From contig CAYQUS010000003.1 in the NCBI GenBank assembly GCA_964421015.1, positions 41,269 to 105,268 on the forward strand: a stretch of DNA of 64,000 nucleotides, written 5' to 3'. This DNA comes from an uncultured Planctomycetia bacterium (GTDB lineage: Bacteria > Omnitrophota > Gorgyraeia > Tantalellales > Tantalellaceae). Positions 2-48,747 of this stretch are shown here, piece after piece (the stretch's first letter is position 1; every line of letters starts with the position of its first letter). Below the pieces are notes generated by a model. That model ran no database searches. It was not told the DNA's origin and worked only from the letters and a program-made list of their open reading frames with translations. The position numbers and the translations under genes are program-made.

Positions 2-3000
2 GTGGAAACGCTTTTCAAGGCTTTCCATTATCTCTTCAAGTTCCGCGACGCCGACCTTGTGGTAAAGGACGGAATGCTTTATGCCAAGCTCAGAAAGCCT
101 TACCAGTTCTCAGAACTTGAGACGCTCAATACCGGAGACACCATAGTTATGAGCCTCGCTGACGGTAAGGTGCGGCAGATACGTATAGACACCGTTCTTT
201 CGGAGAACGCTGTTGTGTCAGAGGGCAATCTCTGGAAAGAGTTCAATTACGAGCCTTTTGCCGGAAAGGTTGACCTTGGGAATATCTCGAGTGTGCCCGC
301 GGAAGGTTTCGAATCCGGAGTAAGGTCTTACGGCGCCGGCAGCGAAAAGCTGACGGTTACGGAGTACAGCAGAGATAACTGGGAATTTCTGAAGACAAGT
401 TTCACTTTTATAAACGAGCTGGGAGAAGACAGCGTTTCCTTCACTATGGCCGAAACCGAGGATGTCCAGGGCCTCAGCGATCCCCAGAAGACGGTGTGGA
501 TAGACTTTCACGATACGGCGAGAACCACCCGCAAATACGTGGGCGAGCTTGAGATAAGTCCGGAAGGCGCGAAAATAAACCCAACGGTCACGGACAGGCC
601 CATACTCATAGAGGATGTTACGCACCCGGAAGGAAGGCATGACCTGCTTTCCATGAAGAAGTTCGGGATATTCGACGAGAAGAACCCCACTGAACAGAAA
701 TTCTTCGAAATGGACAAAGACGGCAAGATGTTCAGGGGAGTGTCTCTTGAGTTTTCTGATACTTTCGATCATGGGATAGTCGTGGTGTACGAGAGAGTAA
801 AAGACGCCGCGCCGGGAAGCGACGAAATTATGATGCGCAAAACCGAATATGTCGCCGACGGGGTTAGGGATTTTGATGAATACCTCAGAGAATACGCCTC
901 TTCGGGGAATGTCAGCGGCCTTGAATGGATATCAGAAGGAGTCTACGGCATAAGAGAAGGGCTCGACATACAAGGCAAAAAGAAAGAGATATGGGACACC
1001 TACGAGTATCGTCACATGAACGGCGAATATTACACCGTAACCGAGGTCCCCGGTGACGGCACCGATTACGGCGTTGAGACTAAGAGCTACATACAGAAGG
1101 GCCGGAACGTTTTCGGCAGGGAATACGAAAGGTCTTTCACCACGCTTGTCCGTGACAGCAAAGTGATAACCGAGCAAAGTATCCAGTTCCTCGCTCCCGG
1201 CGAAGAATATAAAGACGAGACCGGCTCGCAAAGGACGGATTTCGCGGGAAGGGTACAGACGGCCGTAAAGATGCGTCCCGATGAAGTAACGGATATCGAG
1301 GTCCTCACAGGAGCCGAAAAGGTAGCCCCGGGCGATAAAGCCGAGCTGACCAGAGGCGCTATAGAGATACCCGAAGCCAGTTTCGAAGGGATACCGGAGG
1401 AAGAGAGATTTGTTTTTAGGACAGAATCCAAAGAGATGAGGTTCATAGAGGGTATGCCGCGTGTCGTAAAAGAAGAGACACGTATAACCGACAGCCGCGG
1501 AGAGATACTTTACACGGTTACCACCAATTACCGTTTTGCCTGGGACAAAGGAACGATGGAGAAAGAGTCCACCGAGATACTTGTATACGACAATACAGCA
1601 GATGAAAATGGGGAAAATAAAGACGAGGTCAGGAAGTATGTTGTGGAGTATTCTCCGGAGTACCCCGCCGGCCGGTTCATGGAAAGAGGCCGGTACATAT
1701 CCAGGGACAAGTTCCTTTACCTGGCTTCGGAAGGCAAGGCCGTAAGGAAGATACTTAACTATGTCGACGGTTCCGAGGTGGAGAGAGAGGTGGACCTTTT
1801 CAGGTATGTGGACCGCGATCACCCCTCCATAGACGAAGTTTATGAGACTGAAAGATGGAGCGATCCCGCGGAAGACGGCGGGGCCAGGGAAACGGCTGTG
1901 ATAAGAGTTTCAAGCATGGATAAACGGGGAGTTTCTCTGGGCATGACCGCTTCGGACAGCCGGGTCATTTTTACCGACAATGACGGAAAAGAGACCGCTT
2001 CGGTGCCTTTCCCGCAGGCTGAAGAGGCGACGTTCGAAAGAATAGAAAGTTCCGGAGAGATACGTTCTCTGGACGGGGCTTTACTGGGAAATATCGATCT
2101 CGAGAACGGCATGGTAAACGTTGTTTTCGGCGGGGACCAGGCGGACGGGCCCGGCAAAGTAATAGTGCTTCCCGAAGGCGCTTATCTCGGAAGAAGCGTG
2201 GTAAGGCGCCCTGTAGGGCTTGCGAGCGACGGGAAGACCGTGGAGTTTGAGACCATAACAAGCTCTTTCGGTATATATGATATCACCGGCAAACCTTATT
2301 ACAAGCACACGACCGAGAAGTATCCCGAAGCCGAGGATAAAGCCGAAGCGCACACCATCGTGAAGTACAACGAAAACGATAAGACAATGTCGGAATGGCT
2401 CTACGTTATAGGGGTTTCGTCGGACTCTGACAAGAGGTCGGCCGAACTTAATAACCCCGTGGTTTCCTCAAGGCACGCTCTTACGAGGTATCACGGTCTT
2501 AAGGACGATTTCTACCAGATAGAACTCGAAGAGAAAGACAGGATAAAGCGCGACGCCCTCTCCGGGAGGTATTCCACAGAGGACGACTACCAGACCAGCT
2601 ATGTCTACGACAAGAACGGGTTTGCTTCACAGAGGGATTCAGGGACGCTTCCTCTGGCCAGCGAGACCAAGGTATTCGACCCGGTAACGCAAAGTATGAA
2701 GACAATAGAGGAGAACGTCTATTTTTATAACGAGGAAACCGGAGAAAGGTTCATAGTTGACGTTACGGGTATACTGCCGGCTGAAGTTGACAAGAACGAT
2801 CCCGCGGCAGTTCTAAAGTATCTTGACGAGACCGGCCAGACGGTCACGGTGTTCAGGACGCTAATGCCCATCGAGATGCAGTTCGAAGCCGAGCAGTGGA
2901 GGACAACGGTTTCCGAGAAAGAAGGTAAGATCTCGGTGAACTATACCGATCCCGGGGCTTCGCTTGAGCTTCTAAGGATAAAGCATCCCGACAGCGAACA

Positions 3001-6000
3001 CTTTGGCGGGACCTACATAACCGTTCTTCTTTCCGGTAAAGCCGGAGCCTATGAGGTAGAGGGAGTTTTCATGGGTAAAGGCGTGCATCTCTTTTACGGA
3101 GTTGCCGGTAAAAAGAGGGTAAGAGAAGGCGAAGAGCTTCCTAAAGATATAGTTACGATAGATCCCGTGACAGGACAGGTTCTCGGAGTAAGAGAAGATG
3201 TGCTTGAGGGATGGAAGGAAACAAGGAGCGTTTCGTTCGCCTATGATAAAGGCGATGAGACTGTGGTGCTTAATATTCCCGGTGTTATGAGTTCGGATGA
3301 GCTGGGTATACCCAACCCGGACAGGGGCGACGGGGTTTTCTATCTGCAGAAAAAAGTGCGCATGCCCGACGGGCAGGTGGCTTTTGTAATAGCCGAGTTC
3401 AAGGTGAAACTTAAAGAAGGCCAGACTTACGCTGAGGCTCTGGATGAGCTCGCGGCAAAAAGGAATTCTCTCACGCTCGAGATAGATTTCGAGTCGGCAG
3501 GAAACAGCCTTAAAGATCTCGGCACGCTTGAGTATCTATACTTCCCGTGCCATATGGGAGATGACAAGGCGCAGCTCTACCAGATGAAAATAGAGATGAA
3601 CCCCGACAGGACAATAGGGGACGTGGTAACCCTTAACCCGATGGAGGATTTCAAGGCCGACACGAATAGAGGATGGGAATTCGAATATAAAGAAGAATCC
3701 GCCCCAGGTCTTACGGAAATATCCAAGACAGGCACGGAGATATCTCTCCAGGATGTGGAGATACTAATGGATATAGCGCCGGCGGAACTTCTTCCCAGAG
3801 AATTTTCCATCTGGGGCGAAGAGACAATGAGATGGGTAAAGACCCCGCAGCCGGAAGGCGACGTAATGGTCGAATACTTCAAACCCGGCCAGACCAAGGC
3901 GTTTAAGGTGACGTGGGAGATAGGTGAGAATGAGGAAGCGAAAGCGCTTGTTGAAGGCGCTCTGGCAGGTCTTCCGGAAAACAGTATTTTCGGGAAAGAC
4001 GCTGATAAAAAAATAAAAGACGTGGTATACACGTTTGCCAAAGAAAACAATATAACAGATAGCGCTCTTCTTGCTCAGGGCCTTGAAAGAGCTATCGAGA
4101 TGGAAAAGGTTTTTGAAGAGGTGCTGGGCAGAGAGAGCGGGACACTGGCGTCTTCAGTATCTCCGGAGTCAAGGCCGGCTATGGCCAGCAGCGTTCTGTA
4201 CTGGACCGGTAAACTGAGTGTTCAAAAAGATGCCTCAACCGGGGCTGTTACAGGATTCAGCCGGATAGGAAGATCTCTTGGGAATAGGGCTATTCAGATG
4301 AAACCGGCCGTGGTAAAAGCCATGCAGGATCTTTACACCAAATACGGTTCTGATGCCCAGAAGGAAGGAATAGCGGCATTCACGACAGCTGGAACCGGCG
4401 AAGAATTGGTCGTGCTTGATATGGCAATATCACTCGCGGCGACAGATATAACTACGGACAGAGCAATGAAAGATCCTGCCCAGGTGATAAGCGCCGCAGA
4501 TATGCTTTTTGACGGCGAAAGTTATGATAGGGCAGAGCAGGGTATTTTATCTGATCTCAGAAAAGCCGCGGTGAAAGAGTTCCAGGGTATTCTCGATGGA
4601 ACTATAGCCCAGAGCCTTTCGGTAACGATAGAGTCTTTTATGAAGGGTAAGGTGCTGGCAGAAGCTGAAAATCTGGTGGAAGCCATACAGAACAAACCGG
4701 CGGATGCCGATGAGAGCGTAGAGAAAGGAATTGAAATATGGAAGAAGGTGGTGCGTACTTACTATGAGGCTTACGGCGATATTCTCTTTTCGGAGTTTGT
4801 CGATAATAGAAGAAAAGCGCCTAACATGTACGCTTTCCACGCGCAGGACCTTAAGAGCAAAGTGACTGAAATACTTGAAGAAGCCGGAATGGAAAACCTG
4901 GCTTCCGAAATAACGCCGGAGATAAAAGTGCCGGAAGTTAAGCCCGAAGAGGCGGCTCTCAGTATTTCTCTGGATGAGATGGGTCTTAATATACGTCCGG
5001 AGGCCCTTACTCCGAAAGTTATTTTGTCTGAAAATGAGGATTTGAACGGTAAAGGCGCCGTTTATTTCTACGCCAGTAACGAGACTTCTGAAGAAGCTCC
5101 GGGTACGCGTAACTTAGCGGGTAAAACGGTTACTGTTACCGGGAAAATGCCGTATCAGGCAGACCCCGACTCTCCGATAGTGATAGCCCTTACCGATACC
5201 AACGGCAATACCATGGCCGCCACGGCGACGGTGGGCGAGGACGGAAATCTTACGGCGGTATTTGAAAAAGTGCCGGCAAGCGAAGATTTTGACGGAACCA
5301 GCGTTGTTCTTATGGAAACAAGGTTCGCTATGGCGTCGACGACCCCGCCTGTTTGGTCGGTTATGGGAATAATGGTTGCTTATATGTTCGCCAGTTTCAT
5401 GTTCATGGTCGTTAGAAAAGTCCGAGGGTACGGTAAACTTTTGCGTTTGTCTAAAGCAGGGGCGGAGCTAAAAGCAAAAACCCCTATACCGATGACAGGC
5501 TTTATAGCCGATTTTATAAGGGACCTGGGCTATGCGTGGAGAAGCGACCGCTCTTTCACTGGGGCGGCGTTCAAGGTATTTTTTATTGGATTGTTTAATA
5601 TATTTAGAGGAAAACCTGCCGAGAAAAAAGAGGAAACTAAAAAAGTTAAGGAAGAGGAAAAAACAGAAACTACTGCAACCGACACAGCCAGGGAAAAAGC
5701 TTCACTTCAGCCGTTGGAGACAACGAAAGATGCCGAAGAAACAGCCGTACCCGCCGCTACCACCGAGGCTGTAGAAGAAGTTGCTATTGAACCGGCACCG
5801 GTAACCGAAGAAGAGATCCAAACCGAAGTCGATATGGAGTTAGTACATCTCGGTGTAAAAGAGATGGCGCATGCCATAAGGGGCTGGGTAGACGATATTA
5901 AGGTCGATTTCAGAATGATAGGGATTCAGCAGGAAGAAGCCGGCATATTTCTGCCTTTTATGAGGTCTTCCGAAATATGGGAATTCTCGGACTATGCCGC

Positions 6001-9000
6001 TAAACCAAAATATTCTCTCAGCAATATCACCCGGGGCTTGTCTATGGTAGGACTGGGCCTTGCCATCTACGGCCTTGCGGGTTTTGGCGGCGCTCTTACC
6101 TGGATATATCCGGTCGCTCTTATGCTGATACTTCCTGGGTTCTTTAACTGGCTGGCCGTGGCTAAAGTCTCCGTGCCGGGGAGTATAGGGTTTGTCTTAA
6201 TGCACACCATTCTTCCTCTTTTTGGTATGTCGCATCCGGCTATAAGTGTAGTCTTTAGCGCCATTTTTATCGCTTTGTATGTAGCAGCGCCGTTCTATAA
6301 ATATTTGCGAGCGATAAGTGATCCTAATAGCTATGTGGAAAAACAGAGGGGACAGCTTGAGACATTGCGAAGTATGGTATGGATAATGCAGAACGGAGAT
6401 GAATCGCTGCAAAGAGCCGCAGATTGGCTAAGGAGCCACGGAGACCAGGGCCAAAAACTCGAGAAAGAGGAACTTGCAAATATTGCGGACAACAAAGATC
6501 TTAATTTAAGCTCCGAAGCCATACTATACTTGAAAGCAAGAAGTGTTTGGTATTCAAAAGAACGCGGCAAGTTAGGTTTAACTAGAAAACAAGTTATAGA
6601 ACGTCTTGAACTTCTGGCGAGATTTAATAAGAATGTATTGCCCCATATAAAGGACCTTAGAAGGTGGAGACGTTCGCATGACGTGGGCGCCGGGACATCC
6701 TGGATAGGAGCGAAAGTGCCAGGCGGAGAACTGGAAGAGCTTCCTGAGTTCTCTAAAGAGCTGGAAAGTACGCTCAAAGAACTTGACGAACTGGTTGTTT
6801 CTACTCCCAATGAAGGTTCTTTTCGGAAGGATGCGCCGTTTTATCTATTGGGCGCTGGAATGGCCATGTTAGCCGGTGGTATTGGAGTGATATTTACTAC
6901 AGGTATCGTAGTGCCTATCGTAATAGGAGTTATAGCGGTAACGGTTTCATTTATGCTGTTAGTGGCGGGGCTTGGAAAAATAAGAGAGAGTGAGATGATA
7001 ATGTCGCCGGGCCGCGATATGAAAAAGCTGTGGCGCGATAATTTCAGGATCATATATTCCACATCCAGCGGACACGAGCTCAAAGCCCTTGCTTTGTGGA
7101 AAGGCCTGCAGGAAATAACCGCCGCTATAAGCAGAGAGACTTTGGTAATAAAGGCAGAAGAGACACTTTCTCGAAACAGGTTTGTTAATATTGTTCAAGG
7201 AAGTCTCAATAAGATGAAAACCGCACTTACGAATGTGCGTGATACGGCGATTGTAAGGGGCTTTTTCGATTCTTTCCATCTTTCAAGGAACGAAGAATTT
7301 GTCAGAAAAGTCCACATGCTGTTCAATGTTGTTGTTTTTGTTCTGGTGATAAGCGTTGTTCTCCAGCTTGCCACTTTCACGGGGCTTTTTGCCGTCAAAG
7401 AACTGGCAAACCTTGTACTTGCCGGAGAGTTTCTGTCTTTCTCGGAAGTCTTCGCGAAACCCTTCTATGTGCTTGAAATAGGAAAGGCCATATTTACATC
7501 CTACGAGCTCCAAAGCCCGTTTACAGCTGTGATACTGGCGTTCACTCAGACGGCTGTTTTCGGCACAACGGTCATAATGGGCCTCTGGCTTGCTCTCGGT
7601 AAGTTTGTTTTCTATTTTCTCGGTGATAATGCCAGACATTACCCCCAGGAGAAGGTGGTTACTTCCCGCCGGGTGTGGCTTAATGTCGGGATAGGCGCCG
7701 CGGCCGCTATTGCCTTTGCCGTTATCCCCGGAGGGTCATGGCTTGCTGTTATCGGCCGGGCCGTTTCGGCTGTATTTGTCGGGATTTCAGTTTTCAGGTT
7801 TTTTATAATGCGTACGGCCTCAACAAGGTTCAAAGCCATAGTCGAGCAAGACAAACTTCTCACCAAGGATTCCCCCATGCCAAGAGTTACGGCTCTCACG
7901 GAAGCTCAGTGGGATGAGATGAAGAGGGAGTCTTTTGACAATTTTGTTGATACGGTTTTAAGCCGTTATAACGCAGAGGAACAAAGAGTTATTCTTAAGG
8001 CTAACGAAGTTGGAAAAGAAAATCTGTCAGACATGGAAAAAATGGTTTACGAAAGAACCCTTGGAAGAGGAGCCGAACCATCCAGGTCTAAATATAAGAA
8101 CTTTGACAGAGCGTCTCTGGAAGAGGAATATAAAAAGCTTACTACCGAAAACCTTCTTAATCGTATGTCCGGAGCGGGTTTTGAGAACCTAAAGAGAGCT
8201 TTAGGCTTGGACTGTGAAGATCTTAAATTGTGGCATATACAGTCAGAAGATGAGAGTATTAAATTTATAGCGAATTCCATAAAAGATAACGAAACTCGCA
8301 AGAAGAATTTTGAGAATTCCCGAAATGCTATAAAGGGCCTCAGCCCGGATGTTTTGAGGGATATTATAGACGGAGATCTTCTTGAGAGACGTGTGGTTCT
8401 TATGTATGACCTTCTCCCGAAATTTACGCCCTGGATAGTTGTTGTGGACGGAGCTAAAGAGACTCCCAAACTTGTGAATTATCTTGTGGGGTACAGATAT
8501 CCTTTGCAGAGAATACGCATAGTTTTTGCCGGAGAGAACTGGGATAACGGAACGGATGATTTTGTGCAGAAAGGTAAAAGCAATAGCAGCATACCTCCGC
8601 AGCTTATTTTCCGCGGTATGCCGGTGAGGGAAGACAATCTTAACGAGGTTGATATTAAAAAACTTCCTCGTGAGGAAAGAAAGAAAATGCTTATGGCGTG
8701 GGTACAGGCCAATCATCCGTACACTAAACCCGGCGCTAATACATCGGTTCTTGACGACTCCGACGGGACAAGCGGGATAATATACGACGCTGAGAACACC
8801 CCGCACCCATTACAGCCCCTTGAGTTTATACTTGGAGTCATGGACGGGGTTGCCACTGTGCGCCGTCTTTCCGATAAATTCACAAAAGCGTATGCCTCTT
8901 CCGAGATAGGAGAAGAAGATAATGCCGCAGTTAGCGTAAAGAAAGCCTCGGCGCTGTTAGAAAAAACACTTCCTGAGTATGGAAGAGCTCTCGACGAAAA

Positions 9001-12000
9001 AGATATCTCCGATAGTTTAAGATTTAACATAAAGCAGAAAGGCATCCTTAAGCGCCAGATGCGTTATTTCGTTAAGCATAACCTTAAAACCCTGCTCGAA
9101 ATAACCGAAAAAGATCCAAAACTCTTCTCAACCGGAATGTTGTTTGAATATATAAAAGAACAGGTCAAGGCAGGAAGGTCTCTCCTTGAAGACAAAGAAA
9201 TGAGGGAGCTTCTCAATCTTTACATAGTTCTTTGTAATATGCCCGGTTATGGTGAGGCCGCGACTGAGTACATAAAGGGAACATTGACCAAAGATGCTTT
9301 CGTGAAAGAACTTATTAAAGGAGAGTTCCGAAGGGTTAATGAACCCAAGAACGGGCAGGGTCGTCTTGCTAAAATAACTAACGCTCTCGAATTTGCCGGG
9401 CCGGATAAGGGTGCGGGGTCGCAAGGTTCGGTAGCGGCTTTTATGTACGGTGAGTATGCCAGCTGGTATGATCCGGGCTGGTCCGGTTTCATGGCCTCTC
9501 AGGACACTTTTAAACCGCTTGGCGGAACCACGGGATATTTCTGTACAGAAGTTATAGAGGAAATAGACTGGCAGGACCAGGACGTACAGACAAAATTATC
9601 TTTTACGGCCGAAGAAAATGATATAGTGAAACAACATTATGTTACAAAGAATAAGCTCCTTGCCATAGGAGCATGGGACGAATTCCAGGTTGCCGAAGAC
9701 TATATGCTTGGTTTCGTAACATGGTGGTACGGCTTTAATATAGCCGGTTTTATGAGTTTAACTCCCGAGAACCCTGCGGGTTTCGAGGCCGAGGTTGGCT
9801 ATAAGTTCAGGCCCAAACAGCTTTCCCGCTGGATAAAGGGGTACAATATCGGCCTTGTTGTTCTTACGGAAAACTGGTCAAACGTAAGTGAACTCTGGGA
9901 AAGAAAGGGCTGGTGGGGTTTCTTTGTTTTTCTTGTCCCCACTCTTTCAAGCGCTGTAAACCCGCTTCTTTTTATAGCGGCAAGGTTCATAACACAGCTT
10001 TGGTGGATATTCTTCGTACCGGTAGAAACAATAAGAACGTTTCTTGTCAATATTACCTTTATGGACGCCGGCAGTTATATTCAGGGTATGCTGCAGGCTA
10101 CCCAGTTAGATACGCTTCTTCTGAATTTTCAGGATTCAGTTGTATGGTTCATAACAGAGAACCTTAACTATCTTGACTGGTCGCTTGGAGCTCCGATAGT
10201 TGTTCTTCCGTTCGCTCTTCACGCCTATTTTACCTTGCGCGGAATATTTAGAGGAGTAGATAACCGTCTGGGGATGGAGCGTATACTGGCCGAACATGAC
10301 GAGCTGCTTGAGGATGCCCAAAAAGCAGATCCAGCTGTTGTAAAAGAAGTAGAGGACAGGATCAAGGCTATAAAGGAGGGAAGTCTAGAAGAAGTTCCGG
10401 GGCTTGTTTCCCCGAAACCTTTCATTCTCGCGGCAAGCGCTCTAATAGGAGCGTTCGTTACAATAATCGCTATGCCGTTTATTGTTTCATCAGGTGTAAC
10501 ATTTCTTGCGGGTGTAGGAGTATGGGTAGCGGTTAGCCTTATTATATCACTCGGGGTAAACAAATTAACCAGATGGTATGTAGACAGCGCGGTCAAGAAG
10601 AAAGCGAATAAAACGCCCGAGGAAGAGGCTGCGGAAAAAGAAGAAAAAAGTATTCGCGCTATGGCAGTGAGAGCCGGTTCGGCCAATCTCTTTATAGCTT
10701 TTTATCATGCTACCGTGTATCTCCCCGGGAATACAATGGCGTGGTCCGAGATAATAAGCGGCGGCCGAACGGGTTATTGGTGGAGAACTCCTCGAGTTGT
10801 AGGTCAGATCGCTCAGGTCAAAAAAAGGCAAGATAGGAAGTTCGCTTTAGGCGAAGCTAAAATTGCAGAATTTCCTAAGCCGCAAAAAGAGGATAAGGTC
10901 GCAGAAGATGAGTTTATAGAAGCCTTCAAGGAAAAAATGACCAAGGATGAACTTATAGAAAGAGATTTGGAACATACGAGGCTCTGGACACGCCTTATTT
11001 ACGGCTGGGGTTTTGTGGGAGCCATGCTTCTACTTGTGGCTTACAACTTCAGGATGAATTTAAGGGACCAGTTCATAACATCTATCGTCTCGCCGTTTAT
11101 GAGCGGCAGCGCGCCGACTACTTATATCTATCAGCTGGCGTCGAGTAATCCTCTTATTGCTTTAGGGATAGTAGCCGGATCTATCGCCATGGCAGGCCTT
11201 CTTTTCGCCGTAAGTCGTTCTAGAGGCCGTTCGGCTGTGCCTGAGGCGTCAAGGCAGGAAACTTTAACTCTTGAACCGCGAACGGAAGAAGAAGTTATTC
11301 CCGAAACCGGAGAAGTTAAGTCCGAGGCGCCGGTAGCACCGAAACCAAAGGTTCCGGCTGTCGGTATAGGCATTGAAGTTTCTGAGGAAGAGGGAGCTCT
11401 TCTTGAAACATTTGAAACACTTGAAGAAATCCAGGCCAAAGTGAATATAAACACCGCCACTCTGGAAGAACTCCAGACAATACCCGGCGTAGGCCCGGTC
11501 TTGGCCGAGCGTATATTGGAATACCGCCAGACAAATGGGGATTTTGAAAGCATAGAGGATCTTCTTAAGGTCAGCGGTATAGGAGAGAAAAAGCTGGAAA
11601 GTATAAGGGAGTACGTGGACATTCCCCTTGAGCTTCCTGCCGCGAGCCACGCAGTACCGATATCCAATAAAGTAGGCATTCCTATAGGGTCTATAGCCAT
11701 GCTCTTCGGTGCCGCTATTCTCGCTTCAATGTCAGCCGGTGCCGAAATGACCGGAGATGCTCTGCCAACAAAGGGCGCACGCCTTTTTGCGTCGATATCA
11801 GGTGTAGAAATAGCTCTTGTAGCCGGGGTTATTGCTCTTCTGGTATACGGAGCGATAAAATTGCGTAATTATTCAAAGGCAAACGCTCTAAAGTTGAGTT
11901 ATAAAGGTTTTTCAGTTCCTATGTCGATAGCGATTCCGCTCAGTAAACTTGTTAGAAATTCTGAAGATAGAGCGGCAGTGATGGATATGATAAATCGGAC

Positions 12001-15000
12001 TGCCTATACGAAAATTCGTAAGGAACCGGCAACGTGGCATTTTGAGACAAAGGGTGAAATAGTGGAACAATGGCCTTCCCGTGGAGGAGACGATAATAGG
12101 TACGGTCCTTGGGTGGAGGATAGAACTTGGGAAGAAAAAGTTGTCGATAGTTACAAAGATGTTGAATACCCTGTTTTCACTAAGACTGCTGAACTCGTTT
12201 CTAACTCTGCTGAACTCGGGAAAGTCTTCGCCGAAACCAAAGCCAGTCTTGCGGTTAAAAGAGCACGTCAAAATGAATACCAGAAGATGTTTGATGTTTC
12301 AGGAGAAGATGAAAGTTTTAACGCATTAGGCAAAATATATGCGTTTTATGAGTTGTTCCCAGGGGCAGATTTTACTCTCGATAATATTTTCCATATCGAT
12401 GGATTTAGTGGACTCGAGAGCAGAGCCTTATTCTCAAAATTGGCAGGGCAAATTAACGACATTGAAAAGCTAAGAGCCATTGCTGTTCTCGTTCTTATGA
12501 GAGTTGAAGGGATAAATAGAGAACTAGTCGAAACTTTAGCGAATCAGGTTGAAGATATTGAAGACTTATATGTTTTGGAAAGCGTTCTTAGGGAGAATGT
12601 TTCCTTGTTGAGGTCGTCAGAAGTTCCTGTCTACCAGGGAATAACCGAAGAGGTTTATCTAAGAACCGATACAGTGGATGTAAAGCAGCATCTTGACTGG
12701 ATAGAGACAGCGAGTGTTCCAGTGTATGAAACTCGCCAAATCGACGATTTTGTGGGATACCGCACTGTAAACGAGTACGATTTTTCAAAACTTGAAGAAC
12801 TCGCAGCAAATACGGAAACATTGAACAGAGTCTTCGCCGAAACCAAAGTCAGGCTTGCGGATGAGAAAGGGTTACCTGCTGAAGAAGTTACAGCTCAGGC
12901 TCCTCTTACTACAGAAACAACTGGAATAGCGGAAATAGAATACACCTCTGAACAGGTTATAACTGACAAGCTTGCGGAAACCGCTCTCTCTATGGGGTAC
13001 GATTCAACTGTGGTAACAGAGCTTGTTGATAAGACGTTGCAGCGTACAGTAACGTATAACGAAGACGGCACGCCGAATTTCGGAAGGCTTGAGGCTCTTA
13101 TGGAAAACCCCATAGCTTTAGGAAGGGTTTTTGAAGTCTTGTCAGCCGACATCCACCCCATATCATGGCAGACATCGGCATGGGCGGCGGCGTTTTACGG
13201 GGCGCTTTCCGTTATTATAGGAATAGGTTCCGTTTCCGGGCTTTCGCTTGGCGGGAACTTTGTTCCGCTTATGGCCGGAGCTCTTGCTATAGTAGCGTCG
13301 ATATACGCCGTTCAGGCCGCGGATGTTTCTTACGGCGTTCTTGCCGGCGCGCCTTCGGCTCTTATATCGCCTTTTGCTAATGCCCTTCCGGCGGAAGAAG
13401 GCTACATAACATATGTAAGAAGCGGCAGGCTACATGTTAACGCCGAAGAAATGGCTAAGCGGCCCAAGGCGCTTCAGTGGCTGTACTATTCGCACGAATA
13501 TCTGCACCTTAAGGGAGTATATTCTCACGCGGCAGTTTACGGTCTTCAGGGTGTTCTAATGGCCGTTACGGCGGGCCTGGGAGTTATACTTGTTTCCACG
13601 GCCGCGGCAATGAGCCCGGCAGCGGTTTCAGGGGTAGGCATAATGGCCCTCGGGACATATTCGGCTTCGGGCCATGCCGAAACAGTCGGTAAACCCGAAA
13701 AAGTTAATGTTTTAAAGTCAAATAGCGTGCCGAACAGCGTATATAACGGTGTTGTATATAGGTATGATCCGAAAGAGGAGGCGCCTAAAGACGAAGAGTC
13801 TATGATGGCTTATCTTGAGGAAACGATGCTTGACTACGGCAGGCAGGGGATGGAAAGGTACTCAGGAAAGCTGTCCCAGGATAACATCAAGGACGAATTG
13901 ACCCATTTGAACGGTGTCAGGTCCTACATTATGAGCAGCACCGGTGATATGACGGTTGAGTATTTCATGATGATGGAAACATTCGGGAAGATCAAGACTG
14001 CCGAAGGTTCTGACATGCCGGTATATCAGCTGATGAATGTGCTGGCTGATGAGCAGAACTGGAGGGCCAGGGCTAAGATATACGCCAATAACGGTACTTA
14101 CGCCGACTTTAAGCAGATAGTTGACCTTTTCCGTAAAGCCGCGGAACAAATGGCTGAATCTTACAGGATAGATCCGTCGGACAGCGAGCTTGAAATAGAA
14201 AAACTCGCGGTAGTAGTTAGCGAACCCGGTTTTATATCTGAAGTTTCGGGCACTCCGGGCATGGCGGAACTGCTTGAGGGTGCTTTGCCGGATGTGGCAG
14301 AGATTATCAGGCAAGGGTATACGGCGAATTTCGCTTTGCGCAGGTGGCTGGAGACGCCCGGGAACGTCGATCTGACTCTTGCGGAAAAAGTTGTAAACAT
14401 GGTATCGTCCAGCCTTTCTGCGATGCATGACGAGGAGCTGGCAAGGTTCATGGAAGAGACCCTTCCCGGAGGAAAATACGCCGGCCGGCCCGTGATAATA
14501 GTAGCCGATAACTTCCTAGCTAGCGAAGAAGAGATAAGAATGCTTACCGAGAAGTTCGGCATAAAAGCGTATGTTTCGTCTAAGGGCGCCAACGAGCTTA
14601 CCGGTCATTACGCGGTAGTGGCCGGGGCGAGCGGTATGTCTATAGCCGCCGGGCTCGAAGAAAGTGTTCTTGCCGGGATAAACACCGGAGATTCATTGTC
14701 GTTCTTCGTGGAAGAACACGGTGAGGACGCGTATCTTCTTTTTACCAGGGAAGACGGCCGGGATTTCAACGAAGAGGCTAATTCCTGGATGCTCACGAGA
14801 ATGCTTAGCGTTACCGCTCTTCAGGACTACTATGCGGAGAGTTCGTCGGGTGACGTTAAACAGACCATAGACAGGGTAAAGTTCCCTGTATTCGGCAACA
14901 TAAACCTGCCTCTTTCTACGGACAGGGCGGTAGGCATGCTTGACAGCCTTATGGAGTCCGGGGCCGACGGCGTAGGGCTTGTAAGGACAGAGTATATGTA

Positions 15001-17329
15001 CGACGGTGTCTCGGCTCCCACCGAGGCTCAGCAGGTAGAGCTCTATTCCGCTCTTGCTGAAAAAGCCGGCGACAAGATAGTAACTTTCAGGACTTTCGAC
15101 AAAGTGGACGATAAAGAGTGTCCCGCTCTTCCCGTAGAGGACGGCAGACGGAGTTTTGATTATTACAGGACACCTGCCGGGAAAGAAGCTTTCACGGCGC
15201 AGTTAAGGGCGCTGTACAAAGCCGCTTTGAGACATGAAAATATCAGGATAATGTTCCCGATGGTAAAGGACATATCCGACATAGAGTTCATAGCTTCGGT
15301 AGCCAGGGAGAACGGCATGAGTCTCGACCGGGTGAGCCTGGGGATAATGATAGAGACCAGAGAACTTCTGGAAGATGGGAACGGTGATCTTTTCGGAGAG
15401 ACAGGCAGTGTTTCTCCCGTCAATATAAGCGCTCTGGCGCTTAAGGCGATACTGTCTAATCAGGCTGTTCCGATAAGTTTCGTCAGCGTGGGGAGTAACG
15501 ATCTTACCTCTGCCGTAAAAGGAAAACCGAGGACAGATATAACCGATGATGATTTCGACAAGGAGATGCTGGTGGTGCTAGAAGGTATAGCCATTGCCCT
15601 CAGACAGGAATATTACAGGAGGGTAGAGAGCGAAGATGATATGGCTGAACTTGAAGAAAGAGAGCCCAGGGCAATACAGCCTGTAACTATGGGTATATGC
15701 GGAGACGCGGCCAAGTTCGACATAACTTTCCTTTTCAGCCTGTACCTGTACAAGACCCATGGGGTGCTTCTCACACCGAGCGCCGTAAGTTCAGTTATTC
15801 CAAGAAGGAAAGCGCTTATTCCTTTTACCAACGCCGAAGGATGGGTAACGTCTTTCGACCACGGCTGGTGGAATCGTACGGAAGAAGAAATAGCCGGCAT
15901 GGTAAGAGCCAAGGTGGACAAGGTTATAGGCAAGATACGCAAGTCCCCTGGCTATATTGAGATGATAAGAAGAAAAGTCAGCGACAGGGTAGGTATGCGG
16001 AAGATGACCGGGGCTCTGGCGATGGCCGGTTTCGGCGGGGAAGGCCTGAAAGTTTTCGGAGAAAAGGTTTCCGAGCTCATGTACGGCTATGTTCCGGAGC
16101 ATCTTGATTCAGTGCTTCCGGCTATGGCCATACTTATACTTTTGGGCGCGCTTGCCTGGAAAGCTTTCTGGACCGCGGCGGATACTAAGAATGAAGCTTT
16201 GCTGGAAGAACAGCTGACGGAACTTTCCTTAAAGCCTTCCGGCCAGAGGAGATGGCCCTCTATGGTTCATGTTATAGGGGTCCAGACATCTATGACCCAG
16301 GCGGAACTTGATATGGAATTTCCGGGTTTCAAGGCCGGCGGGGTAGACATATTGGCCCTTCCGGAAGGGAAGACAAACGAAGAGAACCTGCTTTTACTCG
16401 AAGCCGCACGAAGAGAGCGCAATACCGTATGGTCAAGCTATGTGGACGCTTCGGCTCTTGAAGCCGCCGGCGGAATATCCAGTCTCGGCAGGGTGGCGCT
16501 TGATATGACGAGAGAAATAGAGAAAAGAGAGACCGAGAAGTTCCTTGAGGAAAATTCTCTTGAAGAAATAGAGTCGCTGCGGTCGGCTCTTGAAGGGATA
16601 CTGAAAGAAATGAATCTCCCGGCCATGCTTCCGGAAATCGGGCTTCTCAGCCTTTATAACCTGAGGATAACCGACAGGGCCAGATCCGGTATGCCAGGAT
16701 GGCTTGACGCGACCACGCAGTCTTACATCGAGCGTGAAGATAAGGAATCTCTCGTTCATGTTACCGTGAGTTCTCTGGCCGAAGTTAAGACGCAGGCCGA
16801 AGCTTTCAGGCTAAGAGATCCCAGGAAACTTAAGCTGAGAGTTACCCTTGCAGTCGGTGACGAAACAAGCGAAGACGAACTTGCGGCTATGAAGACCGGC
16901 AAGGCGGCTCTAATGAAGAGTATGGACGTGGACAAGCTTATAGGCGAGGGCGATCTTGAAATAGTAAGAAGGTCCGACATAAAAGCCGGTCTTACCGACG
17001 CTACAATGGCGGCCATACAGTCCGCCAGGAGCACGGGAGGCGACGTTATAAGCGTAGACAGGGTAGAGGATGCCGGCAACCAGGCTAACCAGAACCTGCC
17101 AAAAGGCGTTCTCGAAATGAGGTACAACCAGTACGCTACTGCCGACGTGTTCGACACGGCGCTTAGGGTGCTCGCAAGAGGCGGAGTGGTAGGAGATATC
17201 GCTTCAGCGATAGGCCTTGATCCGTTGACTAATGGAGTAATTATGTATCTCAGGGAGATCAAACCGGAAGATATGGGTACACTTAAAGCCGAGTTCGAAA
17301 GGTACAGAGAGATACTTACCAGAGCGTAA
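2..17329 (+). CDS. Giant (>=5775 aa, 5' end outside window) polytopic membrane multidomain protein. Beta-rich N-terminal region, acidic Thr/Glu/Lys low-complexity linker, many clustered TM helices, ComEA-like helix-hairpin-helix module, C-terminal PEP-utilizing-enzyme phospho-His-like and PEP/pyruvate-binding TIM-barrel domains
   Basis: Uninterrupted 17.3 kb ORF ending TAA 17327-17329. Translation shows 'INTATLEELQTIPGVGPVLAERILEYRQ..VSGIGEKKLESI' (HhH, nt ~11440-11625). 'GANELTGHYAVVAGASGM' lies at nt ~14585-14640. 'GLVRTEYMYDG..PTEAQQ..IVTFRTFD', 'IMFPMVKD' and 'VSVGSNDLTSAV' mark a PEP-utilizing TIM barrel (nt ~14900-15560). Hydrophobic helix clusters at nt ~6000-7800, 9890-10560, 10980-11860, 13150-13680. 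Followed by a palindromic terminator-like repeat. Confidence 0.8.
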   Translation: METLFKAFHYLFKFRDADLVVKDGMLYAKLRKPYQFSELETLNTGDTIVMSLADGKVRQIRIDTVLSENAVVSEGNLWKEFNYEPFAGKVDLGNISSVPAEGFESGVRSYGAGSEKLTVTEYSRDNWEFLKTSFTFINELGEDSVSFTMAETEDVQGLSDPQKTVWIDFHDTARTTRKYVGELEISPEGAKINPTVTDRPILIEDVTHPEGRHDLLSMKKFGIFDEKNPTEQKFFEMDKDGKMFRGVSLEFSDTFDHGIVVVYERVKDAAPGSDEIMMRKTEYVADGVRDFDEYLREYASSGNVSGLEWISEGVYGIREGLDIQGKKKEIWDTYEYRHMNGEYYTVTEVPGDGTDYGVETKSYIQKGRNVFGREYERSFTTLVRDSKVITEQSIQFLAPGEEYKDETGSQRTDFAGRVQTAVKMRPDEVTDIEVLTGAEKVAPGDKAELTRGAIEIPEASFEGIPEEERFVFRTESKEMRFIEGMPRVVKEETRITDSRGEILYTVTTNYRFAWDKGTMEKESTEILVYDNTADENGENKDEVRKYVVEYSPEYPAGRFMERGRYISRDKFLYLASEGKAVRKILNYVDGSEVEREVDLFRYVDRDHPSIDEVYETERWSDPAEDGGARETAVIRVSSMDKRGVSLGMTASDSRVIFTDNDGKETASVPFPQAEEATFERIESSGEIRSLDGALLGNIDLENGMVNVVFGGDQADGPGKVIVLPEGAYLGRSVVRRPVGLASDGKTVEFETITSSFGIYDITGKPYYKHTTEKYPEAEDKAEAHTIVKYNENDKTMSEWLYVIGVSSDSDKRSAELNNPVVSSRHALTRYHGLKDDFYQIELEEKDRIKRDALSGRYSTEDDYQTSYVYDKNGFASQRDSGTLPLASETKVFDPVTQSMKTIEENVYFYNEETGERFIVDVTGILPAEVDKNDPAAVLKYLDETGQTVTVFRTLMPIEMQFEAEQWRTTVSEKEGKISVNYTDPGASLELLRIKHPDSEHFGGTYITVLLSGKAGAYEVEGVFMGKGVHLFYGVAGKKRVREGEELPKDIVTIDPVTGQVLGVREDVLEGWKETRSVSFAYDKGDETVVLNIPGVMSSDELGIPNPDRGDGVFYLQKKVRMPDGQVAFVIAEFKVKLKEGQTYAEALDELAAKRNSLTLEIDFESAGNSLKDLGTLEYLYFPCHMGDDKAQLYQMKIEMNPDRTIGDVVTLNPMEDFKADTNRGWEFEYKEESAPGLTEISKTGTEISLQDVEILMDIAPAELLPREFSIWGEETMRWVKTPQPEGDVMVEYFKPGQTKAFKVTWEIGENEEAKALVEGALAGLPENSIFGKDADKKIKDVVYTFAKENNITDSALLAQGLERAIEMEKVFEEVLGRESGTLASSVSPESRPAMASSVLYWTGKLSVQKDASTGAVTGFSRIGRSLGNRAIQMKPAVVKAMQDLYTKYGSDAQKEGIAAFTTAGTGEELVVLDMAISLAATDITTDRAMKDPAQVISAADMLFDGESYDRAEQGILSDLRKAAVKEFQGILDGTIAQSLSVTIESFMKGKVLAEAENLVEAIQNKPADADESVEKGIEIWKKVVRTYYEAYGDILFSEFVDNRRKAPNMYAFHAQDLKSKVTEILEEAGMENLASEITPEIKVPEVKPEEAALSISLDEMGLNIRPEALTPKVILSENEDLNGKGAVYFYASNETSEEAPGTRNLAGKTVTVTGKMPYQADPDSPIVIALTDTNGNTMAATATVGEDGNLTAVFEKVPASEDFDGTSVVLMETRFAMASTTPPVWSVMGIMVAYMFASFMFMVVRKVRGYGKLLRLSKAGAELKAKTPIPMTGFIADFIRDLGYAWRSDRSFTGAAFKVFFIGLFNIFRGKPAEKKEETKKVKEEEKTETTATDTAREKASLQPLETTKDAEETAVPAATTEAVEEVAIEPAPVTEEEIQTEVDMELVHLGVKEMAHAIRGWVDDIKVDFRMIGIQQEEAGIFLPFMRSSEIWEFSDYAAKPKYSLSNITRGLSMVGLGLAIYGLAGFGGALTWIYPVALMLILPGFFNWLAVAKVSVPGSIGFVLMHTILPLFGMSHPAISVVFSAIFIALYVAAPFYKYLRAISDPNSYVEKQRGQLETLRSMVWIMQNGDESLQRAADWLRSHGDQGQKLEKEELANIADNKDLNLSSEAILYLKARSVWYSKERGKLGLTRKQVIERLELLARFNKNVLPHIKDLRRWRRSHDVGAGTSWIGAKVPGGELEELPEFSKELESTLKELDELVVSTPNEGSFRKDAPFYLLGAGMAMLAGGIGVIFTTGIVVPIVIGVIAVTVSFMLLVAGLGKIRESEMIMSPGRDMKKLWRDNFRIIYSTSSGHELKALALWKGLQEITAAISRETLVIKAEETLSRNRFVNIVQGSLNKMKTALTNVRDTAIVRGFFDSFHLSRNEEFVRKVHMLFNVVVFVLVISVVLQLATFTGLFAVKELANLVLAGEFLSFSEVFAKPFYVLEIGKAIFTSYELQSPFTAVILAFTQTAVFGTTVIMGLWLALGKFVFYFLGDNARHYPQEKVVTSRRVWLNVGIGAAAAIAFAVIPGGSWLAVIGRAVSAVFVGISVFRFFIMRTASTRFKAIVEQDKLLTKDSPMPRVTALTEAQWDEMKRESFDNFVDTVLSRYNAEEQRVILKANEVGKENLSDMEKMVYERTLGRGAEPSRSKYKNFDRASLEEEYKKLTTENLLNRMSGAGFENLKRALGLDCEDLKLWHIQSEDESIKFIANSIKDNETRKKNFENSRNAIKGLSPDVLRDIIDGDLLERRVVLMYDLLPKFTPWIVVVDGAKETPKLVNYLVGYRYPLQRIRIVFAGENWDNGTDDFVQKGKSNSSIPPQLIFRGMPVREDNLNEVDIKKLPREERKKMLMAWVQANHPYTKPGANTSVLDDSDGTSGIIYDAENTPHPLQPLEFILGVMDGVATVRRLSDKFTKAYASSEIGEEDNAAVSVKKASALLEKTLPEYGRALDEKDISDSLRFNIKQKGILKRQMRYFVKHNLKTLLEITEKDPKLFSTGMLFEYIKEQVKAGRSLLEDKEMRELLNLYIVLCNMPGYGEAATEYIKGTLTKDAFVKELIKGEFRRVNEPKNGQGRLAKITNALEFAGPDKGAGSQGSVAAFMYGEYASWYDPGWSGFMASQDTFKPLGGTTGYFCTEVIEEIDWQDQDVQTKLSFTAEENDIVKQHYVTKNKLLAIGAWDEFQVAEDYMLGFVTWWYGFNIAGFMSLTPENPAGFEAEVGYKFRPKQLSRWIKGYNIGLVVLTENWSNVSELWERKGWWGFFVFLVPTLSSAVNPLLFIAARFITQLWWIFFVPVETIRTFLVNITFMDAGSYIQGMLQATQLDTLLLNFQDSVVWFITENLNYLDWSLGAPIVVLPFALHAYFTLRGIFRGVDNRLGMERILAEHDELLEDAQKADPAVVKEVEDRIKAIKEGSLEEVPGLVSPKPFILAASALIGAFVTIIAMPFIVSSGVTFLAGVGVWVAVSLIISLGVNKLTRWYVDSAVKKKANKTPEEEAAEKEEKSIRAMAVRAGSANLFIAFYHATVYLPGNTMAWSEIISGGRTGYWWRTPRVVGQIAQVKKRQDRKFALGEAKIAEFPKPQKEDKVAEDEFIEAFKEKMTKDELIERDLEHTRLWTRLIYGWGFVGAMLLLVAYNFRMNLRDQFITSIVSPFMSGSAPTTYIYQLASSNPLIALGIVAGSIAMAGLLFAVSRSRGRSAVPEASRQETLTLEPRTEEEVIPETGEVKSEAPVAPKPKVPAVGIGIEVSEEEGALLETFETLEEIQAKVNINTATLEELQTIPGVGPVLAERILEYRQTNGDFESIEDLLKVSGIGEKKLESIREYVDIPLELPAASHAVPISNKVGIPIGSIAMLFGAAILASMSAGAEMTGDALPTKGARLFASISGVEIALVAGVIALLVYGAIKLRNYSKANALKLSYKGFSVPMSIAIPLSKLVRNSEDRAAVMDMINRTAYTKIRKEPATWHFETKGEIVEQWPSRGGDDNRYGPWVEDRTWEEKVVDSYKDVEYPVFTKTAELVSNSAELGKVFAETKASLAVKRARQNEYQKMFDVSGEDESFNALGKIYAFYELFPGADFTLDNIFHIDGFSGLESRALFSKLAGQINDIEKLRAIAVLVLMRVEGINRELVETLANQVEDIEDLYVLESVLRENVSLLRSSEVPVYQGITEEVYLRTDTVDVKQHLDWIETASVPVYETRQIDDFVGYRTVNEYDFSKLEELAANTETLNRVFAETKVRLADEKGLPAEEVTAQAPLTTETTGIAEIEYTSEQVITDKLAETALSMGYDSTVVTELVDKTLQRTVTYNEDGTPNFGRLEALMENPIALGRVFEVLSADIHPISWQTSAWAAAFYGALSVIIGIGSVSGLSLGGNFVPLMAGALAIVASIYAVQAADVSYGVLAGAPSALISPFANALPAEEGYITYVRSGRLHVNAEEMAKRPKALQWLYYSHEYLHLKGVYSHAAVYGLQGVLMAVTAGLGVILVSTAAAMSPAAVSGVGIMALGTYSASGHAETVGKPEKVNVLKSNSVPNSVYNGVVYRYDPKEEAPKDEESMMAYLEETMLDYGRQGMERYSGKLSQDNIKDELTHLNGVRSYIMSSTGDMTVEYFMMMETFGKIKTAEGSDMPVYQLMNVLADEQNWRARAKIYANNGTYADFKQIVDLFRKAAEQMAESYRIDPSDSELEIEKLAVVVSEPGFISEVSGTPGMAELLEGALPDVAEIIRQGYTANFALRRWLETPGNVDLTLAEKVVNMVSSSLSAMHDEELARFMEETLPGGKYAGRPVIIVADNFLASEEEIRMLTEKFGIKAYVSSKGANELTGHYAVVAGASGMSIAAGLEESVLAGINTGDSLSFFVEEHGEDAYLLFTREDGRDFNEEANSWMLTRMLSVTALQDYYAESSSGDVKQTIDRVKFPVFGNINLPLSTDRAVGMLDSLMESGADGVGLVRTEYMYDGVSAPTEAQQVELYSALAEKAGDKIVTFRTFDKVDDKECPALPVEDGRRSFDYYRTPAGKEAFTAQLRALYKAALRHENIRIMFPMVKDISDIEFIASVARENGMSLDRVSLGIMIETRELLEDGNGDLFGETGSVSPVNISALALKAILSNQAVPISFVSVGSNDLTSAVKGKPRTDITDDDFDKEMLVVLEGIAIALRQEYYRRVESEDDMAELEEREPRAIQPVTMGICGDAAKFDITFLFSLYLYKTHGVLLTPSAVSSVIPRRKALIPFTNAEGWVTSFDHGWWNRTEEEIAGMVRAKVDKVIGKIRKSPGYIEMIRRKVSDRVGMRKMTGALAMAGFGGEGLKVFGEKVSELMYGYVPEHLDSVLPAMAILILLGALAWKAFWTAADTKNEALLEEQLTELSLKPSGQRRWPSMVHVIGVQTSMTQAELDMEFPGFKAGGVDILALPEGKTNEENLLLLEAARRERNTVWSSYVDASALEAAGGISSLGRVALDMTREIEKRETEKFLEENSLEEIESLRSALEGILKEMNLPAMLPEIGLLSLYNLRITDRARSGMPGWLDATTQSYIEREDKESLVHVTVSSLAEVKTQAEAFRLRDPRKLKLRVTLAVGDETSEDELAAMKTGKAALMKSMDVDKLIGEGDLEIVRRSDIKAGLTDATMAAIQSARSTGGDVISVDRVEDAGNQANQNLPKGVLEMRYNQYATADVFDTALRVLARGGVVGDIASAIGLDPLTNGVIMYLREIKPEDMGTLKAEFERYREILTRA

Positions 17330-44603: not shown

Positions 44604-44651
44604 AATAGGGCTAACTATCATACATTTGAAAAGCGTAAAAGAAGGTAGTTG

Positions 44652-45560: not shown

Positions 45561-45573
45561 TTGATGGAGAGTT

Positions 45574-46422: not shown

Positions 46423-46462
46423 AATTCGCTAACGCTCGTCTAACGGAACGGAAGGAAGGATA

Positions 46463-48142: not shown

Positions 48143-48162
48143 TCCAAAAGGAGGGACAAAAA

Positions 48163-48747
48163 ATGAAAAAGAGTATGTTGGTTGCGGTGATACTGTGTTT
48201 CTTTGCCGCGGGACTCTCGTTCGCGGGAGAGGATGTTCTTTTTAGTTTCGAAGGCGGCACGGAAGGATGGGAGATCCCGGATTGGGCCTATGAAAAACCG
48301 GACCATGTCCAGGAAGCCATAAACATTTCGGAAGAGTTCGCTTCTAACGGGGCCAACAGCCTTGAGGTAGAGGCTGTTTTTCCGGGCGGCAGATGGGCCG
48401 GAGCCATAGTTGAGACCATGCAGTATTTCGACTGGTCGGAATACAACAAGCTGGCCTGCGATATCTATCTTCCTGCTGACGCGCCTCTCGGGCTCAAGGC
48501 CAAGTTCATACTTACTGTGGGCGACAACTGGCAGTGGGTTGAGATGTCACGTTCCTACGATCTTAAGCCGGGCGAGTGGGTGACCGTAGAGGCGGACATA
48601 GCTCCGGGCAGTATAGACTGGCGCAGAGTCGAGGTAGGAGAGGCTTTCAGGCAGGATATCAGAAAGATAGACATAAGGGTTGAGTCTAACAATAAACCCG
48701 CTTATTCCGGACCTTTCTACATAGACAACGTAAGGGTCATAAAGTAA
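48163..48747 (+). CDS. Secreted beta-sandwich protein, putative carbohydrate-binding (CBM-like) module
   Basis: Signal peptide 'MKKSMLVAVILCFFAAGLSFA', RBS aaaggaggg. Paralog of 48776..49513 ('FPGG.W...VE..QY.D.S.Y......D.YLPADAP.GL.AK.ILTVGDNW..VEM.RS..L.PGEWVT'). Confidence 0.6.
   Translation: MKKSMLVAVILCFFAAGLSFAGEDVLFSFEGGTEGWEIPDWAYEKPDHVQEAINISEEFASNGANSLEVEAVFPGGRWAGAIVETMQYFDWSEYNKLACDIYLPADAPLGLKAKFILTVGDNWQWVEMSRSYDLKPGEWVTVEADIAPGSIDWRRVEVGEAFRQDIRKIDIRVESNNKPAYSGPFYIDNVRVIK

Follow-up and report, generated by a model that had tools for sequence, protein, structure and literature searches.

ComEA is the textbook protein of periplasmic DNA uptake. It is small (100-205 amino acids, aa), and its DNA-binding domain, known from the structures 8dfk, 8dss and 2duy and from V. 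cholerae ComEA, is an atypical tandem helix-hairpin-helix, (HhH)2, of four helices with a loop as connector; anchored forms place a transmembrane (TM) helix and a flexible linker ahead of this domain, and Gram-positive ComEA also has an oligomerisation domain. According to Ahmed et al., the best-conserved ComEA residue is a lysine (K164 in B. subtilis, K166 in G. stearothermophilus, K63 in V. cholerae), whose mutation abolishes DNA binding or lowers transformation more than 100-fold (PMC9747964, PMC3879209). Here we describe a domain of this type in the middle of a giant membrane protein encoded by the first open reading frame (ORF1) of a 64,000-nucleotide (nt) stretch of contig CAYQUS010000003.1 (positions 41,269 to 105,268, assembly GCA_964421015.1), hereafter the window.

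Giant proteins of the phylum Omnitrophota, in which many TM helices separate soluble segments and Pfam matches only a minor part of the sequence, are the second class of described systems to which this protein compares. They include the TM-rich 'Archaeovorins' with glycolytic or sugar-metabolism and pyruvate phosphate dikinase (PPDK) domains (West-Roberts et al. 2023, bioRxiv 10.1101/2023.11.21.568195) and the class 1 'multi-enzyme metabolic clusters' of Nielsen & Lui 2026 (10.64898/2026.06.07.730766), whose catalogue of 916 long proteins shows TM helices or signal peptides in 94% of them and covers 552 distinct Pfam families (10.64898/2026.06.07.730766). Most full-length Omnitrophota giants contain a SecA-DEAD domain, and the catalogue criterion is a length of at least 10,000 aa (10.64898/2026.06.07.730766, bioRxiv 10.1101/2023.11.21.568195). 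An HhH or ComEA domain is mentioned in the main text of neither paper (10.1101/2023.11.21.568195; 10.64898/2026.06.07.730766). Both ingredients, the ComEA-type HhH and the Omnitrophota giants, are already known; of the placement reported here, the insertion site and the orientation, probably cytoplasmic, no description was found in the papers that were searched.

The reading frame in question is the following.
nt 2-17329, plus strand: ORF1, 5,775 stop-free codons, open at the left edge of the window.

Because the frame is open at this edge with no upstream stop, the protein is longer than 5,775 aa. ORF1 encodes an Omnitrophota polytopic mosaic protein: a partial NCBI protein (P0001) is 100% identical to part of it, both module junctions included, and P0001 and the homologs described below are, by label, proteins of Omnitrophota metagenome-assembled genomes (MAGs). 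P0001 bears the name 'MAG TPA: helix-hairpin-helix domain-containing protein, partial [Candidatus Omnitrophota bacterium]', and the HhH in ORF1 had therefore already been caught by routine annotation. Given that its source is Candidatus Omnitrophota, ORF1 is one of the giant membrane-anchored multi-enzyme proteins already described, with which it and its neighbours share sugar-metabolism and phosphoenolpyruvate (PEP)/pyruvate domains (PEP-utilizers_C in ORF1; glutamate dehydrogenase, PPDK_N and phosphoglucomutase/phosphomannomutase, PGM/PMM, in ORF2 and ORF3). The catalogued giants reach at least 10 thousand aa, whereas the window ORFs have 3-6 thousand, ORF1 being cut by the window edge, and, unlike in the published giants, SecA-DEAD, dockerin, TSP3 and HEAT domains were not detected in the window. 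No tandem repeats were found in ORF1.

The module and the linker that leads to it lie in the second half of the traceable frame.
nt 11216-11434, plus strand: linker of 73 aa, starting with RSRGRS and then acidic and proline-rich (8 K/R, 17 D/E, 7 P).
nt 11435-11617, plus strand: ComEA-type (HhH)2 module, aa 3812-3872, recognised by Pfam, NCBIfam, PDB sequences and an AlphaFold2 (AF2) model.

Judged by sequence identity and modelled fold, the module is a genuine ComEA-type (HhH)2 domain. Pfam HHH_3 (PF12836) matches aa 3812-3872 with 83.5 bits (E=1.1e-23, cutoff 27), four other Pfam HhH families match as well, HHH, HHH_5 and HHH_2 among them, and the NCBIfam model TIGR00426, 'ComEA helix-hairpin-helix repeat region', gives 72.7 bits where 53.1 is the cutoff. 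The best bacterial matches in a PDB sequence search were B. subtilis ComEA (8dfk, E=1.7e-19), G. stearothermophilus ComEA (8dss) and the T. thermophilus protein related to ComEA (2duy), followed at lower rank by Tex, PolX, XPF and PsbU. The AF2 model, built on a 40-sequence alignment with a predicted local distance difference test (pLDDT) score of 77, contains four helices (model positions 22-26, 33-46, 52-57 and 63-69) in a compact fold without a connector helix, and Foldseek superposed it on Geobacillus ComEA 8dss with a root-mean-square deviation (rmsd) of 0.6 Å over 63 columns at 52% identity. Both GxG hairpins are kept (GVG at aa 3829-3831, GIG at aa 3859-3861), as are the GIGEKK lysines of the second motif (aa 3863-3864) and all invariant and near-invariant columns of 39 relatives. 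The original prediction of a tandem HhH of ComEA type at nt ~11440-11625, lying between helix clusters, is thereby confirmed by the profile searches and the structural model; the peptide on which it was based occupies aa 3815-3868 (nt 11444-11605), with helix T19 before the module and helices T20 and T21 after it.

Despite this identity, the module is not a complete ComEA. The full-length comE model TIGR01259 reached only 80.2 bits, far under its cutoff of 152.35, with only positions 57-119 of its 120 matched; the oligomerisation domain of the Gram-positive protein is absent, and the module sits mid-protein in at least 5,775 aa. A HMMER search with aa 3650-4400 against 1.84 billion representatives gave 57,083 matches, the best 150 of which were obtained through the HhH alone and were mostly multi-HhH proteins. 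HHH_3 domains are known in cytoplasmic proteins as well, as the PDB sequence search and Foldseek both illustrated with Tex. In proteins of the Tex/Spt6 type the same HHH_3 fold acts inside the cell and within a large multidomain protein (P. aeruginosa Tex 3bzk, Foldseek TM-score 0.77, rmsd 0.8 Å), although Tex is only 34% identical to the module, is soluble and combines HhH with YqgF and S1, partners not present in ORF1.

About 25 hydrophobic helices separate the soluble segments of ORF1, and hydropathy recovered all six of the clusters for which the protein had been called polytopic.
nt 5351-5413, plus strand: TM helix T1, an extra candidate outside the range of the original prediction, followed by RKVRGYGKLLRLSK (6 K/R).
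nt 6035-7801, plus strand: T2-T5, T6-T7, T8-T9 and T10-T11, an even number of helices (hairpins) in each cluster; start of the conserved core.
nt 9914-10561, plus strand: the T12-T16 cluster, with T12, T14 and hairpin T15-T16.
nt 10994-11215, plus strand: T17 (aa 3665-3683) and T19 (aa 3716-3738), with a non-membrane loop between them; the conserved core ends here.
nt 11672-11857, plus strand: hairpin T20-T21, its outer loop 19 aa long, and then KLRNYSKANALK; positional equivalents exist in homolog L002.
nt 13172-13321, plus strand: hairpin T22-T23.
nt 13535-13675, plus strand: hairpin T24-T25, T25 being marginally hydrophobic.
nt 16103-16180, plus strand: T26, a candidate C-terminal TM helix outside the range of the original prediction.

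The helices exceed what composition yields by chance: counting non-overlapping 19-aa windows with a Kyte-Doolittle value of at least 1.6, whole ORF1 had 21, compared with a mean of 8.4 and a maximum of 14 in 200 residue shuffles, and the flagged region had 19, compared with a mean of 6.7 and a maximum of 14. On an approximate Hessa scale, accepted helices scored -2.4 to 5.7 and the soluble N-terminal region had a minimum of 8.9. The candidate T18 was rejected as a TM helix, with a score of 8.06 near the soluble background and an equivalent stretch that is charged in the homologs.

Homologs were collected by pattern-based scans of genomes (L001-L004) and metagenomes (L005-L008) and by protein searches (P0002, P0273-P0276). 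In BLASTP they share with ORF1 a core from aa ~1930 to ~3750 (T2 to T19) at 35-59% identity, and homology among the giants ends at aa ~3741-3784 (nt ~11222-11353), just past T19, from where each protein continues differently.
L002, after T19: a 27-aa K-rich loop, two TM helices (T20, T21), then a soluble region again homologous to aa 3956-4090.
L003, after T19: a soluble region with a winged-helix-like segment.
L005, after T19: GNAT, HD, a 2-TM hairpin and PEP-utilizers_C.
L006 and P0275, after T19: a K/R loop, one TM helix and glycoside hydrolase family 5 (GH5).
L008 and P0002, after T19: resemblance to L006 and P0275 by sequence similarity only; Pfam gave no match for L008.
L007, after T19: soluble repeats, TM helices and PEP-utilizers_C.

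None of the six homologs that cover the module position (L002, L003 and L005-L008) contains an HhH domain, so that by comparison of these sequences the module and its acidic linker are a lineage-specific insertion of ~150 aa into the short T19-T20 loop. The insertion brought no TM helix, as L002 and the window protein both have T19, T20 and T21. With cargo that differs by lineage, the post-T19 site behaves like a recombination or domain-shuffling junction. Stand-alone proteins 100-130 aa long and 55-67% identical come closest to the module; in them an N-terminal TM helix or signal and a linker precede the HhH, and one of them is annotated as an Omnitrophota ComEA; the donor was most likely a small stand-alone gene of the ComEA family. 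The GC content of the insert, overall and at third codon positions (GC3), equals that of the rest of ORF1, and the insert is therefore no recent foreign addition. That the arrangement is an artefact of assembly or annotation, through a chimeric contig or a small comEA falsely fused into the giant ORF, might be suspected of a metagenome-assembled source whose NCBI copy is a 4.6-kb fragment; we regard it as extremely unlikely, since the frame is continuous over 17.3 kb without a stop, the independent P0001 is identical across both junctions, the base composition of the insert matches its surroundings, and the homologous soluble region resumes past T21.

Three observations on individual homologs stand beside this comparison. 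In L003 (JAQTUD010000017.1), the segment VSKGTVARDLKFLADTGLVKKE lies at the post-T19 position (giant-ORF aa ~3620-3900, nt ~10860-11700), with Pfam matches that are below threshold and convergent (FUR, DeoR, HTH_41, PadR and ArsR, E 0.003-0.03) and with sub-threshold PDB matches to MJ223, Lrs14 and MarR structures (E 0.1-1.3), every one of them a DNA-binding family of winged-helix type; the sequence of this winged-helix-like segment hints at a recurrent recruitment of nucleic-acid binders to the site. L004 (CAZOMD010000070.1) is a core homolog on a contig labelled 'uncultured Planctomycetia bacterium', its frame broken into pieces by frameshifts or assembly errors. P0275 comes from 'Candidatus Aureabacteria', so the family reaches beyond Omnitrophota-labelled MAGs.

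For the side of the membrane on which the T19-T20 loop lies, a cytoplasmic domain served as an anchor.
nt 14492-15358, plus strand: Enzyme I/PPDK-like PEP-utilizers_C domain (Pfam E=5.4e-25; TIGR01417 model positions 155-431).

In a 23-TM model, the N-terminal ~1,780 aa ahead of T1 are predicted outside, T1 crosses from outside to inside, every later cluster is even-numbered, and PEP-utilizers_C follows the HhH after six predicted TM helices. Lysine and arginine (K/R) make up 58 of 313 flanking residues inside and 8 of 146 outside in this model. Locally, an internal HhH gives 12 K/R inside and 4 outside, whereas an external HhH gives 5 and 11, respectively. T19 itself has no K/R on its N side and four (RSRGRS) on the HhH side, and a K/R-rich flank follows T19 in all homologs. 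GNAT, HD and PEP-utilizers_C families depend on cytoplasmic cofactors or substrates, and in L005 all three lie on the C-side of T19, separated from it by at most a 2-TM hairpin. In P0275 and L006, GH5, which is expected outside, appears only after one further TM helix. As a control on the positive-inside rule, 34 stand-alone ComEAs were richer in K/R on the N-flank in 18 cases and poorer in 7, with 9 ties (mean 2.47 on the N-flank and 1.88 on the other side), a pattern opposite to that of T19; because the expected direction shows only weakly in this control, charge counts of single helices have limited power and are soft evidence by themselves. Since the insertion added no TM helix and the T19-T20 loop is predicted to be cytoplasmic, the HhH is placed on the cytoplasmic side as well, a prediction that we consider very probable; an external HhH would require T18 to be a TM helix. 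ComEA, by contrast, is periplasmic behind an N-in anchor or signal.

Taking these observations together, we lean slightly towards the reading of a domesticated ComEA-derived module on the cytoplasmic face that may act as a non-specific nucleic-acid tether. The giant is a mosaic whose core (aa ~1930-3750), made of TM hairpins and a conserved soluble domain possibly like those of glycosyltransferase family 2 (GT2), ends at T19, past which each lineage bears its own cargo. The first cargo of this lineage is the ~150-aa insert in the K/R-rich T19-T20 loop, an acidic linker followed by the (HhH)2 domain, most likely taken from a small stand-alone gene of the ComEA family. At the inner membrane face the module would work as a sequence-independent clamp on double-stranded DNA, by which DNA would be held to the giant scaffold in the membrane. 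On this analysis nucleic acid may be tethered at that face, and binding or tethering of DNA by the module is proposed only tentatively. We also entertain, as a quite improbable extension, that the re-targeted ComEA clamp couples the nucleoid, or the giant's own locus during transcription, translation and membrane insertion, to the multi-enzyme assembly.

Several observations weigh against a cytoplasmic tether of this kind. The module is found in one of the seven giants that cover the position (the window protein and six homologs), and a single lineage offers no evidence from conservation that it matters. The proteins closest to it are of ComEA type and are secreted or anchored. Where B. subtilis has K164 it has Leu3834 (GVGPVL, aligned by HMMER to GVGPSK of 8dfk), and its net charge of -6 lies at the acidic end of the range of its homologs. 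The topology was derived from hydropathy, the positive-inside rule, homolog flanks and domain anchors; the approximate Hessa scale scores T25, T14 and T4 as marginal, counting back from PEP-utilizers_C puts the HhH outside if T25 is not a TM helix, and TM predictions for such giants are unreliable and differ between tools according to the published authors (bioRxiv 10.1101/2023.11.21.568195). Leucine occupies the K164 position in 84 of the 114 members of the module's nearest ComEA-annotated subfamily, and K or R stands there in only ~22% of modules in a broader HHH_3 sample; sequence comparison speaks against treating the module as one of the ComEAs that have been studied, and a loss of DNA binding does not follow. 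Net charge was discarded as a discriminator of DNA binding, as the homologs span -8 to +6.

The original prediction had gone further and suggested nucleic-acid capture or tethering at the envelope. An HhH that faces the periplasm or the surface and there captures or tethers DNA from outside the cell, such as that of prey, in the manner of anchored Gram-positive ComEA, would draw on the order of T19, flexible linker and HhH, which mimics anchored ComEA, on the N-terminal TM helix or signal of the closest stand-alone relatives, and on the description of Omnitrophota as predatory or episymbiotic with type II or type IV pilus-like secretion loci near giant genes; the published TM predictions in giants are error-prone, and with T25 marginal the TM helices that separate the HhH from PEP-utilizers_C could conceivably be odd in number. 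However, such an orientation reverses the charge pattern that stand-alone ComEAs show (0 K/R at the N-flank of T19, 4 on the HhH side), conflicts with the K/R-rich post-T19 flanks of all homologs, with GNAT, HD and PEP-utilizers_C on that side in L005 and with GH5 one TM helix later in P0275 and L006, and needs a membrane-spanning T18 where the score is soluble-like and the homologs are charged. No competence genes (comEC, pilQ or pilus genes) were found within the 64-kb window, and the K164 equivalent is leucine. Outward DNA capture requires several predictions to be wrong together, and we hold it to be improbable. Because the module was inserted only once, into a loop whose predicted side is the cell interior, it is probably no outward DNA-capture device, nor would it be a periplasmic receptor for DNA uptake; the suggestion of capture at the envelope is not upheld, given a loop predicted cytoplasmic, a module absent from all six homologs that cover the position, the leucine at K164 and a window lacking competence genes.

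The alternative that is harder to set aside makes the module a passenger or a repurposed piece, brought in by domain shuffling, with no selected nucleic-acid function or with a protein-protein or structural role as in HhH proteins of the PsbU type. Its presence in one giant of seven fits this, at a site that is a hot-spot for variable cargo (winged-helix-turn-helix-like in L003, GNAT in L005, GH5 in L006 and P0275), as do its acidic charge and the leucine in place of the essential ComEA lysine (PMC9747964); with 552 distinct Pfam families in the catalogued Omnitrophota proteins of at least 10 thousand aa, the presence of any one of them is no surprise. PsbU, which is not known to bind DNA, has the HHH_3 fold too. 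Against a mere passenger, the family's remaining conserved residues are all present, both GxG hairpins and the GIGEKK lysines among them, the leucine variant is normal in the nearest ComEA-annotated subfamily, and a fully ameliorated composition with an intact frame argues for retention under selection. We consider a passenger rather unlikely, and retain the cytoplasmic ComEA-derived tether as the working reading.

Omnitrophota giants are almost entirely uncharacterised, and the compartment of each segment is a prerequisite for functional models. In this case a domain with a periplasmic textbook role in DNA uptake has apparently been put on the cytoplasmic side by being inserted in a loop that is conserved. 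Should it bind DNA there, a protein would directly link the chromosome of an ultra-small episymbiont to its membrane; an outside position would speak for DNA scavenging from prey. Either way, the comparison defines a core (aa ~1930-3750) common to at least eight giants and a variable-cargo junction right past T19.

Within this core, one soluble domain stands out.
nt 7802-9913, plus strand: soluble domain of the conserved core, aa ~2601-3304; by eye its motifs resemble those of GT2.

This domain is the most conserved part of the family, with long invariant runs in a four-sequence alignment and 36-59% identity over larger segments in eight homologs. Its motifs IYDAENTP and FRPKQLSRW (QLSRW) are reminiscent of processive, cellulose-synthase-like GT2 synthases, which have a GT-A fold with D, DxD, D and QxxRW motifs, and are strongly conserved, YDAEN and QLSRW being invariant in the homologs; one of four homologs matched PF13632 (E=8.9e-4), and NCBI names P0273 'glycosyltransferase'. 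The window copy itself had no Pfam, NCBIfam or PDB sequence match (a PDB profile search with the conserved core returned noise, E >= 0.16), and an AF2 model of aa 2830-3960 from a 6-sequence alignment was unusable (pLDDT 46, essentially no strands). From its sequence motifs the domain is possibly GT2-like.

The region behind the module and the frames downstream complete the description of the giants.
nt 11858-13171, plus strand: soluble segment, aa 3953-4390, between T21 and T22, partly homologous to L002.
nt 17802-30197: ORF2, 4,131 aa, with glutamate-dehydrogenase, PPDK_N and PEP-utilizers mobile domains.
nt 30547-39678: ORF3, 3,043 aa, with phosphoglucomutase domains I-III.

The segment of aa 3953-4390 belongs to no known family and has no Pfam match; its aa 3956-4090 are 27% identical to L002 in BLASTP, and by eye the translation of aa ~3953-4390 contains three loose copies of a motif like L..N...L.RVFAETK, namely FTKTAELVSNSAELGKVFAETKASL, FSKLEELAANTETLNRVFAETKVRL and FGRLEALMENPIALGRVFEVLSADI. 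The parts of PPDK, PEP synthase or Enzyme I type are divided over two consecutive giants, with PEP-utilizers_C in ORF1 and the rest in ORF2, where PPDK_N and the PEP-utilizers mobile (phospho-His) domain occupy aa ~2791-3206; in the homologs L005 and L007, too, PEP-utilizers_C shares one giant ORF with the core. ORF2 also holds a complete Glu/Leu/Phe/Val dehydrogenase at aa 735-1227, with dimerisation and NAD(P) domains (E=6e-50). In ORF3, PGM/PMM domains I-III lie at aa 1639-2076, and just 3' of it a separate PGM/PMM gene (nt 41683-44529) encodes 948 aa, of which ~400 are extra C-terminal residues.

Beyond ORF3 the window shows an ordinary sugar-utilisation neighbourhood, with genes for PGM, two ABC permeases, two glycoside hydrolase family 113 (GH113) mannanases, two carbohydrate-binding module (CBM) proteins and ROK kinase, solute-binding, PMT_2, GT2, YdjC and MscS proteins and with smpB and transfer-messenger RNA (tmRNA). 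A mannan-utilisation-like set at nt 44649-53366 comprises two ABC permeases, two GH113 enzymes, of which one bears an F5/8 type C domain, a ROK kinase, a solute-binding protein and two small CBM27/mannanase-GBD-like proteins. A tRNA-Leu(CAG) gene lies on the minus strand at nt 58555-58641. On the plus strand, smpB (nt 59047-59505) is directly followed by the tmRNA gene (nt 59609-59989), whose predicted tag is VPALAGTGSLVSALAY.

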